A DNA stretch of 64,000 nt from Escherichia coli O157:H7 (GTDB taxonomy: Bacteria > Pseudomonadota > Gammaproteobacteria > Enterobacterales > Enterobacteriaceae). The position numbers were made by a program, and so were the translations under genes. The stretch is taken from the NCBI RefSeq assembly GCF_013167455.1, contig NZ_CP038328.1, one strand, 5' to 3'. Numbering within the stretch: the stretch's first letter is position 1; each line of letters begins with the position of its first letter. Below, piece by piece: positions 32,915-36,466 of this stretch. The notes beneath the pieces are model-generated. The model was not told the origin of the DNA. It searched no databases and saw only the letters and a list, made by a program, of their open reading frames with translations.

Positions 32915-33223
32915 GTGCAGCCGGTTTTGATGGAGAAAATTATGAACACCTTGTTTTTACTGATGGCTGAATTCAATACCCCAAACATTGAACTCTCAGC
33001 AGTTAGCCAAAAGTACTTTGGTATGAGTCCAGCCACGGCAGAAGCAAAAGCAAACGCTTGTAAGTTGCCCGTTCCAACATATCGCATCGGCACATCACAA
33101 AAAGCAAAACGTTGCATCAATATTCAGGATCTTGCGGAATACATAGACAAAAGGCGAGAAGAAGGACGTATCGAGTGGGAACAGGTCAGAACAGTCAAAC
33201 AGAAGGGCAAAGAAAATCACTAA
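32915..33223 (+). CDS. small DNA-binding protein (PrtN/excisionase-like)
   Basis: Last plus-strand gene of the early-left operon; …KYFGMSPATAEAKANACKLPVPTYRIG… HTH-like; probable start at 32930 or 32942. Confidence 0.45.
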   Translation: MQPVLMEKIMNTLFLLMAEFNTPNIELSAVSQKYFGMSPATAEAKANACKLPVPTYRIGTSQKAKRCINIQDLAEYIDKRREEGRIEWEQVRTVKQKGKENH

Positions 33224-33231
33224 AGAAAAAA

Positions 33232-33258
33232 CCCGCCTGAAGGCGGGTTTTCAAAAAG
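33232..33258. terminator. bidirectional intrinsic terminator at the prophage/island junction
   Basis: aaaaaacccgcctgaaggcgggttttcaaaaa: GC stem flanked by A-run and T-run. Confidence 0.7.
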
Positions 33259-33270
33259 CACCAGCTATGA

Positions 33271-33444
33271 TCATGCTGCTTTGAGACGACGAAGCTTACC
33301 CTGCTGCTCTTTACCAGAGACAGTAGCGTGAGTGAACGCATTAGGAGCAGCCTTCATCAGAACTTCAACAGCAGCACCCATACCTACGAATGCTTTCATT
33401 GTGTCGAACTTAACCTGTGGCTTGGTTGCTTTTTGATCTTCCAT
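33271..33444 (-). CDS. small protein (57 aa), third gene of the junction cassette
   Basis: Below the ORF-track size cut-off; ATG 33444 preceded by GGAG; MEDQKATKPQVKFDTMKAFVGMGAAVEVLMKAAPNAFTHATVSGKEQQGKLRRLKAA. Confidence 0.45.
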   Translation of the reverse strand: MEDQKATKPQVKFDTMKAFVGMGAAVEVLMKAAPNAFTHATVSGKEQQGKLRRLKAA

Positions 33445-33483
33445 AGAAAACTCCAGAAGTTATACCGAAACAATTCCTGTTGT

Positions 33484-33903
33484 TTACTCATCATCAATAG
33501 ATGATACGCAATATTTATTTTTAAATTTAAGGTTCTTTGGCGTAACTTCATCAGAGATATCAAAACCGTCCAGAATTCTATTGAATGTAGCTTCTGGCAT
33601 ATCATCATGAACAGAAATCTCACCCGATCGCTGCTTTCTAACCATGTTATCCACTCGCCAAATTATAGCTTCAGCGTAAACAACATAACTTGGATGCTTG
33701 ATAAAGCGATGATCACCAGAATTCAAGACGCAAGACGGATCGTGGGGGACACCATCCTTGATACTAGAAATATTAACAACTAAAACACAATAACAATCGT
33801 TAACGGGGTAATAAACAGGATCATTACAAATCACATGAAGATGATTGCATGGTCCAGTTGGGGCAAGCACAGTTCCTTTCCTGTATGGCTGATAATCCGT
33901 CAT
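33484..33903 (-). CDS. hypothetical protein (candidate toxin/effector partner)
   Basis: 139 aa, Cys/His-rich (…CNHLHVICND…HDPSCVLNSGDHRFIKHPSY…); ATGA overlap with the upstream gene. Confidence 0.55.
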   Translation of the reverse strand: MTDYQPYRKGTVLAPTGPCNHLHVICNDPVYYPVNDCYCVLVVNISSIKDGVPHDPSCVLNSGDHRFIKHPSYVVYAEAIIWRVDNMVRKQRSGEISVHDDMPEATFNRILDGFDISDEVTPKNLKFKNKYCVSSIDDE

Positions 33904-34472
33904 GATAATTGCAAAGAAAATTCCTTAAGTTTCTGAGATTCTTCCATTTTGCCAATTATGCGATTAGCCTCATCCTCGCTTTTACCCTCACTGATCAGCA
34001 TTTCTTTCAGGTCTATAGGCTTACGAGAATTGCCAGGATCGTGCCACTCTGGACAAACGCTTTCTAAATGCGTCATATTTGCGAGATCAAATCGGTTCAT
34101 ATGCCCATACCGAGAATAGATTTCATCTAAAATCCGGATATCTGCACGACTCAATTCATCAAAGACCTCGTCTGCATCCATTTCCCTCGGATCTGAACGC
34201 AACGATACATTATGCCCGTTCGTCTCTATCAAGTTGTACCAGTAGTCACCAATGCCTTCAGCCTTACCGCGAATCAAGTTCAGCGTATTCGACATGACTG
34301 GTCCAAATTTCATAGAGTAAAGGCTATCTTCGCCGATCATCCTGCCATGCTTCAAAATCGACTGGCGGTTAGACAGATAGAGCAGCTTCATCAATTTCAG
34401 ATATGCCATGCGCCCACCTCTCTTAAGAAGTAGGTATGCAGCCATTTGAGCTACTTTTTCTTCGCAAAACAT
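33900..34472 (-). CDS. Panacea (DUF4065/SocA-like) antitoxin-domain protein
   Basis: 190 aa; N-terminus MFCEEKVAQMAAYLLLKRGGRMAYLKLMKLLYLSNRQSILKHG resembles the N-terminal signature of Panacea-domain proteins (recalled); AT-rich. Confidence 0.5.
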   Translation of the reverse strand: MFCEEKVAQMAAYLLLKRGGRMAYLKLMKLLYLSNRQSILKHGRMIGEDSLYSMKFGPVMSNTLNLIRGKAEGIGDYWYNLIETNGHNVSLRSDPREMDADEVFDELSRADIRILDEIYSRYGHMNRFDLANMTHLESVCPEWHDPGNSRKPIDLKEMLISEGKSEDEANRIIGKMEESQKLKEFSLQLS

Positions 34473-35191
34473 ATAAGAAACCTCAAAGATAGTGAACTTT
34501 ATAATTATTCTCGATACTTCATGGGTTGCTTCATCACCAACATGAGCTTCTTATGGTGTGCCCACTTGGGCCTAAGCAACCAGTTACCTCGTTTGTCAAG
34601 TTTATAGCTGGCTTTAACCATGGTCAATTGAAGTGATGAGCAAATGATGCTTTCTAAGAATAACAGGTTCCCAATAGGCTCCCACAAAGTGCATAACTAG
34701 TTGTTTTTCAAAAACGGTACATCCTATCGAGCATTGGTGCAACGCTAAACCGACCACTCCAGTGAACGTCAGTTTTTTCAGGCATTGCGCTGGTTTGGTT
34801 GATTTTTTGCATTTCAGAATTACCGTGCATTTTCAAATGTAGAGATTATTTTATCGATATATCATGTGGTTATGTTATTCAGCATCACTGTTCAGGAGGC
34901 TCAATAACGGGGTACTATACCATAACAACAGGAAGCGCCTGTCTCATTGCAAAAGAAAATTGAGATCCTCTCAAGGCATGAAGCTCTCACGAAGTGAATA
35001 TCTAATCTTATTAGATGTTAGCGTTGTGAAAAGCAATGATAAACAATACAGATTCGACGATAAATAAAAATCACACATTAAACTCCGGTGATATCTCTCC
35101 CTGCTAATAGCACTGATAGAGAAAAAAAGAACCCAATAAACATTGGGTTCTTTTATGTAATACCTTTCATACCATCGAAGAACTTCACATA

Positions 35192-36148
35192 TTATTTCTC
35201 CGATTTAACCCCGAATAAATCATAAATTAATTTAGAAGTGCCTGTATATATTTTAATCTTTTCCTTTGAGTTTGGGTCAAACGACTTAGCAAAGTCAATT
35301 AATTTCGGTGCAGCATCTCGCATTTTGCTTAAAATATCAGGGGCGAGCGTTCCTTCATTCACCAGATGTGACATCTTATCCAGATAGCCATCAAAATTCA
35401 TTTCTCCCCCATCTGCCAGACGCTTCATCTCTCCCAGGTACTTCTTCATATCACGTTGAGATAATTCTTCAAACTGAGCTTTCAGGTAGTTATCATTATA
35501 TTCATTAATATTCACTCTTCCTGCAAAATCTGAGTAGACACTAGAATATGAAAGGGAAATTAACAGCGAAGCAAATAATTTTAAGCTGTTGTCATCATGT
35601 TCCTGGCAGGCATTAACAAACGTTAAGAAACCAGAACCTATTGCTTGCAAATGTATATTCGCTAAAGGTTCATTATCTTTAGATTCCTCATAAAATAGCT
35701 GAACCGTGGAGGGAAGACCATTCTTGGTTTCTACATCAAAAGTACATCGTTCTATGAGTGTCGCATCTTTATTATCCTCGGGATTACATATACTATTAAT
35801 CGCGAAATGAAAAATAGCCCTGTCAACAACTGATGCAATAAATTCACGATCGTTTAATTCCTCATCAGTACAATCTCCAATATACTCATTGACACACATT
35901 TTGAGATCGTTTATTTGCTTAATTAACGTCACATTTTTTTCACGTGCAGTCCATAAATTATGAGTGATTCTTTGAATAAATAAATCTATTTTTGCAATAA
36001 TTATATCCCGATGACGCATCGTTGAATAATCAATAGATTTACCATATATACTATTTACTTTACCTTTGATTGCATCTTCATTATCGAATTGATTTGAATT
36101 GAGTGTTTTATTAAAGTATCCTGTTGCACCGGGTATTATCTTTAACAT
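35192..36148 (-). CDS. AT-rich orphan protein of unknown function (318 aa)
   Basis: Uninterrupted ORF, clearly AT-rich relative to both the prophage and core flanks; N/K/D/I-rich, no transmembrane segment or motif recognised; own AT-rich upstream region. Confidence 0.55.
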
Positions 36149-36466
36149 GATTCATCTACCTTTTTTGTCGTACCGTGTCCTCCTTATAAGTGTTTTTGGA
36201 ACCGGTAACTATCAAAAATCGCTCATAATTTTCTGAAATTCGGGTATACGATTAGCCACGGTTAAATAAATAGCGAGTTAACTTGAAGCAATTTATTTAA
36301 AAATGAATTATTAATTATTATCGTGTTGATAATGGTACTGCCAGGCAACACAACATCTTACCTACAAAACAGAAAAGCAACATTACGGCAACAATAAGGG
36401 TTCTCGGTGTTTTTCCTGGAACATGGTAAAGTAAGGACATTCTTAACCCCCACTTTGAGGTGCCCG

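Follow-up and report, generated by a model that had tools for sequence, protein, structure and literature searches.

A probable attR end of a dusA-integrated lambdoid prophage in Escherichia coli O157:H7, with an excisionase gene and no neighbouring integrase

Why does the early-left operon of a lambdoid prophage in E. coli O157:H7 end in an excisionase gene that has no integrase beside it? The prophage lies in a stretch of 64,000 nucleotides (contig NZ_CP038328.1 of assembly GCF_013167455.1; hereafter the window), whose left edge falls inside the tail tape-measure gene, leaving 34.7 kb of prophage visible. A preliminary description had started from the premise that int lies beside xis, placed the prophage boundary at a bidirectional terminator behind the excisionase gene, and proposed either that the integrase lay beyond the left edge of the window or that this end had been remodelled. 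Here, we conclude that the region is very probably the attR end, the one far from int, of a lambdoid prophage that a dusA-specific tyrosine integrase inserted into host dusA, about 104 nt from the start of the gene. The lack of an integrase at the xis end is normal for phages of this type. The features of the region are collected in Table 1.

Table 1. Features of the prophage end and the adjoining host DNA, numbered from the first letter of the window.
Feature	Position	Strand	Evidence
3'-5' exonuclease, penultimate gene of the early-left operon	32330..32905	+	phrog_255 exonuclease, 3.4e-94; same annotation in relatives
Excisionase of the PrtN family (recombination directionality factor), 93 aa; closes the early-left operon	32942..33223	+	PF11112, 3.8e-23; phrog_1300 'excisionase', 1.1e-39
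G+C-rich hairpin where xis and the cargo genes converge	about 33227-33252		Terminator scan; folding
Conserved 57-aa ORF, convergent with xis	33271..33444	-	phrog_2741, 1.1e-34
Candidate toxin, 139 aa, MazF/PemK/Kid-like predicted fold	33484..33903	-	AlphaFold2 and Foldseek
Panacea-domain (PanA/SocA-like) antitoxin, 190 aa	33900..34472	-	PF13274, 3.7e-19; 'Panacea domain-containing protein' in relatives
attR phage arm	34473..34726		No mismatch to the Lys8385Vzw attP arm
Core (crossover) sequence TCGAGCAT, 8 bp	34727-34734		Phage/chromosome boundary, within dusA nt 1-104
Displaced native dusA 5' end, about 35 codons with start codon, severed from the gene body	34727..34830	-	Identical to EDL933 dusA nt 1-104
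Chromosomal DUF2713 gene, 318 aa, outside the prophage	35192..36148	-	100% identical to EDL933
zur, chromosomal flank	36467..36982	+	Annotation of colinear records

The excisionase gene and the hairpin behind it

As first described, the plus-strand early-left operon ends in a PrtN/excisionase-like gene, which matches families of this kind in both Pfam and PHROG. Its ATG at 32942, which follows a GGAG, is a likelier start than the GTG at 32915. The protein is 100% identical to that of the inducible phage Lys8385Vzw, and its counterpart in phage mEp460 is annotated as 'excisionase'. Both its family and its position, at the end of the early-left operon and next to an att site, point to an excisionase or recombination directionality factor (RDF). 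On its 3' side the neighbouring gene is on the opposite strand, and attR follows 1.5 kb downstream.

The hairpin in between folds strongly on both strands (-18.1 kcal/mol, z-score -4.5, on the plus strand; -19.0 kcal/mol, z-score -4.0, on the minus strand). The terminator scan, however, accepts it in the minus-strand orientation alone, with six U after the stem; the plus strand has four (UUUUC). The idea of a bidirectional terminator therefore stands as far as the stem is concerned but not for the U-tract; the hairpin is predicted to act as a canonical intrinsic terminator on the minus strand, for the cargo transcript, and less strongly on the plus strand. A cargo transcript, whether started at a cargo promoter or at that of the interrupted host dusA, would end here, and we propose that the hairpin thereby insulates xis from antisense transcription.

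The phage-host junction inside dusA

The stretch from the hairpin to zur had been described as AT-rich and on the opposite strand, which we confirmed: the sizeable ORFs at 33271-36148 are all on the minus strand, and the GC content is 0.41 at 33259-34726 and 0.34 at 34831-36406, against 0.53 from zur to plsB. An Rfam scan of 32500-36800 returned nothing at gathering score.

Alignment to other genomes locates the junction within this stretch. In the O157:H7 strain EDL933 the dusA site is unoccupied, and the dusA-DUF2713-zur locus matches the window at 100% rightward of 34727 (3293/3293 identical positions over 34727-38019), stopping at dusA nt 104. Homology to K-12 likewise starts exactly at 34727. 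On the phage side, 33224-34734 is contained without mismatch in the circular genome of Lys8385Vzw and is missing from the unoccupied K-12 and EDL933 loci. Judged by these alignments, the hairpin is not the boundary of the element, as had been thought; the boundary lies 1.5 kb further right, at 34727-34734. The break in host homology at dusA nt 104 (window 34727) corresponds to the insertion in the dusA 5' end that defines elements with a dusA-specific integrase (DAI elements).

The 8-bp core at this boundary is common to the mEp460 attP, to attB and to both junctions of the KH_005 lysogen, and the published attB of phage phi1720a-02 contains it too (PMC6328086). The Lys8385Vzw record has a duplicated core, which we rejected as a genuine attP feature given the single core in mEp460. 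Two direct AGGYTCCC repeats in the phage arm (34665-34672 and 34676-34683) are candidate arm-type Int sites, and a matching pair also occurs on the int-side arm in relatives. The promoter scan places a promoter-like site for the cargo operon at 34627-34599 on the minus strand.

Part of the yjbL/yjbM/dusA side of the K-12 locus, said earlier not to be visible, is present in the window. Reading from the core, dusA nt 104 to 1 (34727-34830) are followed by the DUF2713 ORF, which is K-12 yjbL and yjbM in unsplit form; yjbL aligns to its residues 1-71 and yjbM to residues 84-318. The translation of the dusA remnant agrees with K-12 DusA through ...SVAPMLD, and relatives annotate it as an incomplete tRNA-dihydrouridine synthase.

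The far end and the integrase

The window itself contains no recognisable recombinase, in agreement with the preliminary description: tblastn with the cognate 365-aa integrase gave a best E of 4.7, PHROG scans of 16 ORFs found no recombinase family, and none is annotated for the window region in colinear relatives. This integrase is present in KH_005, UTAK-6, Lys8385Vzw and mEp460; the four copies share at least 98% identity, and the protein of KH_005 carries PF00589. In the free phages mEp460 and Lys8385Vzw the order is xis-cargo-attP-int, with int on the same strand. With attP in the middle, integration pulls xis and int apart, and the premise that they should be neighbours in the prophage does not hold for this phage group. 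It also follows from this order that the integrase should be found next to the restored dusA, at a distance of about 45-50 kb.

This is the arrangement seen in lysogenic relatives. The KH_005 lysogen reads dnaB-qorA-pspG-dusA-int-dinI-tail...xis-cargo-dusA'-DUF2713. A search for att direct repeats, which had been suggested as a check, found one in this relative: a 117-nt repeat with 82% identity, 45,054 bp apart, with one copy at each prophage end and the core shared. In the genome studied here, the second copy would lie outside the window. In UTAK-6, the closest colinear relative (colinear with window 1-43586), window position 1 corresponds to record position 429060 and the integrase lies at 443714-444811, or 14.65 kb beyond window position 1. 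The integrase of the present prophage would then probably lie about 15 kb beyond the left edge of the window. In both KH_005 and UTAK-6, the 5' end supplied by the element restores the ORF: DusA there starts MHDNPEIQ... and continues in frame into the native body. In relatives an 88-bp spacer with two AGGTTCCC repeats separates dusA from int.

Alternatively, the far end may have been remodelled by deletion, or by recombination or inversion with another lambdoid prophage, so that int and attL are lost or unlinked and the prophage is locked in despite an intact attR. The left end of this prophage falls outside the window. In a megablast search the best matches over the full length of the window reached 97% identity, and among loci collected by exact matches to the major tail protein, the Panacea protein or the 407-aa portal-associated protein none equalled the window at 100%. 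O157:H7 backbones hold many near-identical lambdoid late regions able to recombine (at 10 loci, identity to window 1-11756 is 98.5-99.8%). Far ends are indeed rearranged in some strains: O121:H19 strain RM8352 has the same xis-cargo-dusA' end, yet there the late region stops at IS600/nleC beside uspF/ompN, with neither integrase nor dusA. For this reason, we rejected RM8352 as a model of the far end. Against such remodelling, the int-dusA end is intact in UTAK-6 and KH_005, and among complete E. coli genomes int-side junctions are commoner (741/5426, about 14%) than xis-side junctions (209/5426). The visible half-site also has no sign of decay, as window 32942-34734 shows 0 mismatches over 1793 nt to Lys8385Vzw, a plaque-forming phage that was induced with mitomycin C and plaque-purified (PMC7946995). 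The identical 22-nt junction was found in 9/10 sampled loci. Of the two possibilities first raised, an integrase beyond the left edge is thus what every informative relative shows, whereas this side bears no sign of remodelling, and we consider a remodelled far end unlikely.

It is far less probable still that the element lacks an integrase altogether and relies on one provided in trans by another resident prophage. Although 34.7 kb of visible prophage without an integrase would suit this idea, the relatives and free phages with this xis and attP arm all encode their own cognate integrase beside attP. Finally, the notion that the prophage ends at the terminator (33232-33258) and that the AT-rich minus-strand genes up to zur form a separate chromosomal island would account for the strand switch and GC drop at the hairpin, but it is already refuted by the alignments of 33224-34734 to the phage genome and the unoccupied loci, and we give it practically no weight.

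In the free phage genome, the early-left operon leads through the exonuclease and the PrtN-type excisionase to the terminator, which the cargo approaches from the opposite direction, from the side of attP; beyond attP follow a surrogate dusA 5' end, int and dinI. After integration, the PrtN-type gene and the cargo stay at this end with the native 5' end of dusA, now displaced, and the other end should receive the integrase together with a dusA 5' end brought by the phage, which makes the gene whole again. If KplE1 is a guide, int would presumably have a promoter of its own that overlaps the att site on its side, and excision would begin once the early-left transcript, induced by the SOS response, provides excisionase.

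Cargo genes between the hairpin and the core

The 1.5 kb from the hairpin to the core is phage cargo, with genes for a Panacea antitoxin, a MazF-fold toxin candidate and the conserved 57-aa ORF. The last of these is found in every relative, including mEp460, whose cargo between this ORF and attP otherwise differs from that of the window. PADLOC and NCBIfam scans gave no usable matches for the cargo genes. Homologues of the 139-aa ORF are 132-150 aa long and cover about 95% of it. It has no Pfam match, and its fold was predicted with AlphaFold2 (mean pLDDT 89.6). In a Foldseek search of the PDB with this model, the top 50 hits all belonged to the MazF/Kid family (best E 2.6e-3, TM 0.42-0.62). 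The Panacea gene lies upstream and is co-oriented with it, and its stop codon overlaps the ATG of the candidate toxin (ATGA, 33900-33903). We therefore regard them as a candidate toxin-antitoxin pair, whose activity is suggested by sequence and predicted fold.

The arrangement, with a Panacea gene immediately upstream of, and overlapping, a small gene with a predicted MazF/PemK-like fold, resembles that of PanA-PanT pairs, and toxins of this class are among those reported for PanT (Kurata et al., 2022; PMC8832971). In contrast to those pairs, the toxin here could not be assigned to a family by sequence, and PADLOC has no matching model. This candidate pair, in a variable cargo slot beside attR, is the sole mildly new item at the locus.

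In the integrated state, the orphaned promoter and start codon of host dusA lie immediately ahead of the pair and point the same way, with no predicted terminator to separate them. The promoter scan found no promoter above threshold for the dusA remnant. Transcription from the dusA promoter could read through into the cargo. Expression of the pair might then differ between the integrated and excised states, making it a defence or addiction device that depends on integration, and the hairpin at 33227-33252 would protect xis from such read-through; this is a doubtful proposal.

Relation to known integration modules

The layout described here is already known, having been published both for elements with dusA-specific integrases and for recombination modules of the KplE1 type. 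In the former family, dusA receives a new 5' end from the element (Farrugia et al., 2015; PMC4482086). As here, DAI prophages and genomic islands are inserted in the dusA 5' end and leave the original 5' end as a remnant (PMC4482086). They also have semi-conserved att repeats, a replacement 5' end and a tyrosine integrase next to dusA, all three of which are seen in relatives of this prophage. There is no difference in kind; the window simply holds the remnant end alone, with one att copy (34727-34734).

The closest known phages are phi1720a-02 (KF030445), Lys8385Vzw (MT225100) and mEp460 (NC_019716), which have the same integrase/att module and PrtN-type excisionase as this prophage type. Phage phi1720a-02 integrates 100 bp into dusA at a 7-base core, needs Int for excision, and was described as having a 'noncanonical' orientation (PMC6328086). 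Compared with these three, the prophage in the window has no stx, carries a TerB-family gene downstream of a tRNA trio, and resides in an O157:H7 backbone.

In the KplE1 module, int and the RDF gene are uncoupled and the int promoter overlaps attL (Panis et al., 2010; PMC2951348). KplE1 (CPS-53, IntS/TorI) thus resembles the present case in having its integrase and directionality factor at opposite ends, and the early-left genes yfdP/yfdQ/yfdR are shared. The relatives of our prophage show this layout, with the int promoter region over the int-side att site. The RDF here, however, is PrtN-like rather than TorI, the integrase is another one, and the target is dusA instead of argW.

Lambda shares the lambdoid genome plan, with a tyrosine integrase and a small excisionase encoded where the pL operon ends. 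Its order xis-int-attP keeps int and xis together in the prophage, whereas the order xis-cargo-attP-int separates them; a module of the lambda type, with int immediately beside xis and attP beyond int, is not what we find here. Our result is mainly a correction: the assumption of a lambda layout misleads calls of prophage boundaries and of 'defective prophages'. Calls that expect int beside xis will mislabel common dusA-integrating lambdoid phages, Stx phages included, in which xis and int lie at opposite ends and a 104-nt dusA remnant is left behind.

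The prophage-chromosome junction in dusA

The region is the ordinary attR end, here the xis-side end, of a lambdoid prophage integrated in dusA (features are listed in the table below). Homology to K-12 starts exactly at window position 34727 and extends to 40470, and EDL933, an O157:H7 strain with an unoccupied dusA, is identical over 3293/3293 positions (34727-38019), the match stopping at dusA nucleotide 104. The sequence to the left of 34727 does not differ from the attP arm of the related phage Lys8385Vzw. The prophage therefore does not end at a terminator at 33232-33258, as the preliminary description had it. 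That description also held that the yjbL/yjbM/dusA side was not visible, which was mistaken; the displaced dusA 5' end (dusA') and an unsplit yjbL+yjbM reading frame are both in the window. The backbone shows 100% identity to O157:H7 across 24.6 kb; for the lysogen, neither the complete RefSeq genomes nor the indexed contigs gave a 100% match.

Features around the xis-side prophage end
Feature	Position	Strand	Details
3'-5' exonuclease gene	32330-32905	+	next-to-last gene of early-left operon
PrtN-family excisionase gene (xis), 93 aa	32942-33223	+	PF11112 3.8e-23; phrog_1300 'excisionase' 1.1e-39
G+C-rich hairpin	33227-33252	both	3' of PrtN-family gene
57-aa ORF	33271-33444	-	phrog_2741
139-aa ORF	33484-33903	-	ATG overlaps stop codon of Panacea gene
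Panacea-domain protein, 190 aa	33900-34472	-	PF13274 3.7e-19
Phage arm of att site, 254 nt	34473-34726
Shared 8-bp core TCGAGCAT	34727-34734		prophage/host junction
Displaced dusA 5' end	34830-34727	-	first 35 codons (MHGNSEMQ...SVAPMLD)
DUF2713 ORF, 318 aa	35192-36148	-	K-12 yjbL + yjbM unsplit; yjbL matches residues 1-71, yjbM residues 84-318

Phage mEp460 has one copy of the core in its attP; K-12 and EDL933 have it in attB, and the lysogen KH_005 has it at each of its two junctions. In the Lys8385Vzw record (MT225100.1, 7428-7443) it is tandemly duplicated at attP, compared with the single copy in mEp460; this record was likely closed from prophage ends with both att cores retained. The phage arm carries two direct AGGYTCCC repeats 11 bp apart (within 34665-34683); the window has only one further copy in its 64 kb. 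Relatives and free phage genomes have a matching pair on the int-side arm. In Lys8385Vzw such direct repeats, 11-12 bp apart, are present on both attP arms (7366-7384 and 7572-7591). We infer that they are candidate arm-type Int sites.

On the host side, the window and EDL933 both have an intact DUF2713 gene (GC about 0.34 in the window), whereas it is split in K-12; the yjbL/yjbM pair thus looks like one disrupted gene.

Excisionase, hairpin and cargo

Several elements of the preliminary description hold. Matches to PF11112 and phrog_1300 confirm that the early-left operon ends in a PrtN/excisionase-like gene, every sizeable ORF at 33271-36148 lies on the minus strand, and the region before zur is AT-rich (GC 0.41 at 33259-34726 and 0.34 at 34831-36406, vs 0.53 at zur-plsB). 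The bidirectional terminator fared less well: the hairpin is strong on both strands (folding energies: plus, -18.1 kcal/mol, z = -4.5; minus, -19.0 kcal/mol, z = -4.0), but the terminator scan accepted it only on the minus strand, with a run of six U after the stem; the plus-strand stem is followed by UUUUC. The hairpin is an internal phage feature, 1.5 kb from the true prophage end, and would stop cargo transcription before it reaches xis in the antisense direction.

This cargo, between hairpin and core, consists of three phage genes, all on the minus strand. The 139-aa ORF had no match in Pfam. Its homologues (132-150 aa, about 95% coverage) occur in Enterobacterales, Vibrio and Shewanella, and its structure is predicted confidently (mean pLDDT 89.6), with the best 50 PDB matches all belonging to the MazF/Kid family (best E 2.6e-3, TM 0.42-0.62). 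MazF-like toxins are among the reported partner classes of Panacea antitoxins (PMC8832971). In mEp460 another gene replaces this candidate toxin-antitoxin pair while the 57-aa ORF and xis are unchanged, indicating that the region between the 57-aa ORF and attP is a variable cargo slot. The 57-aa ORF is convergent with xis and retained in every relative, even beside different cargo.

The preliminary description had also offered a remodelled prophage end as an explanation. This is not supported, as the window matches Lys8385Vzw without a mismatch over 32942-34734 (xis, terminator, cargo, arm and core), and Lys8385Vzw is a phage obtained from a dusA lysogen by mitomycin C induction and plaque purification (PMC7946995). 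Among complete E. coli genomes, the xis-side junction is found in 209/5426 and the int-side junction in 741/5426. In the assembly collection, 10,997 indexed blocks have exactly this Panacea protein; the ten loci sampled all have, next to zur, the Panacea gene, a 139- or 128-aa ORF, the 57-aa ORF and a PrtN gene, nine of them with the identical 22-nt junction.

Other features of the window

A minus-strand tRNA trio (window 17667-17918; region 17066-17569) has the arrangement that precedes stx in Stx phages. Its genes are Met(cat), Arg(tcg) and Arg(tct) according to ARAGORN, the first being annotated as Ile in relatives. No stx genes follow the trio; judging from colinearity with the lysogen UTAK-6, a TerB-family gene and a DUF3927 gene come next. 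At 21172-22389 (-), the window has one fusion ORF of 405 aa, in which residues 1-113 correspond to a RusA-like resolvase and residues 137-403 to a KilA-N-type regulator; UTAK-6, KH_005 and Lys8385Vzw have two separate genes instead. The portal family phrog_2271 (859 positions) is covered by two minus-strand ORFs overlapping by 4 nt (3290-4513 and 4510-5874; 454 and 407 aa); RefSeq gives a frameshifted portal gene here in UTAK-6, and other assemblies have two genes. Between ubiC and malM, 44001-46000 is low in GC (0.34-0.35), and colinear genomes are annotated there with a SopA-family/pentapeptide-repeat protein, frameshifted in O121 RM8352.

Location of the integrase and known systems

The window contains no recombinase, in line with the preliminary description: the cognate integrase as tblastn query gave a best E of only 4.7, none of 16 window ORFs scanned against PHROGs belonged to an integration family, and no recombinase is annotated in relatives colinear with the window. 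Its suggestion that the integrase lies beyond the left window edge is the option supported by the layouts of related phages and lysogens. In free Lys8385Vzw and mEp460 the order is exonuclease, excisionase, 57-aa ORF and cargo (opposite strand), attP, integrase, dinI and tail fibre. As attP lies between xis and int, integration must part the two genes. Accordingly ordered, the KH_005 lysogen reads dnaB-qorA-pspG-dusA(intact)-int-dinI-tail...head...lysis...Q...replication...repressor...yfdPQR...exo-xis-cargo-dusA'-DUF2713, its prophage ends forming a 117-nt direct repeat (82% identity) with copies 45,054 bp apart. Window 1-43586 is colinear with UTAK-6 at about 97-99% identity, its position 1 corresponding to 429060 of the UTAK-6 record, within the tape-measure gene. 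In that record the integrase occupies 443714-444811, and next come dusA, pspG, qorA and dnaB. The integrase has 365 aa, the KH_005 copy matches PF00589, and the copies of KH_005, UTAK-6, Lys8385Vzw and mEp460 share at least 98% identity. The phage supplies the first 104 nt of dusA in both lysogens; this stretch is in frame and matches the native sequence at 82% identity. In the related phage phi1720a-02, deleting int abolished attP formation (PMC6328086).

We consider it improbable, at roughly one chance in ten, that the window's prophage has become unlinked from its integrase; some weight is due because rearranged far ends exist. One such case is O121:H19 RM8352, where this attR end is attached to a late region ending at IS600/nleC beside uspF/ompN, without an integrase. 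That prophage (NZ_CP028110.1, about 1,908,300-1,958,060) retains the xis-cargo-dusA' end, with neither integrase nor dusA at the late end. It looks as though two lambdoid prophages recombined or an inversion arose between them, and site-specific excision would then be blocked.

An integrase beside dusA, separated from xis by integration, is a layout already known. In dusA-specific integrase elements, the integrase lies beside the dusA 5' end, which the element replaces, and imperfect att repeats flank the element (PMC4482086); the relatives share this architecture, and the window's prophage, inserted in the 5' end of dusA, would share it too. The phi1720a-02 study already called the orientation "noncanonical" (PMC6328086). 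By analogy with KplE1, Int would be made from its own promoter, probably autoregulated, and excision would start once the SOS-induced early-left transcript supplies the PrtN-type excisionase. In the KplE1 paradigm, int and the recombination directionality factor gene are likewise apart and the int promoter overlaps the int-side att site, an organisation reported to be widespread (PMC2951348); the early-left genes yfdP/Q/R are common to KplE1 and the window's prophage.
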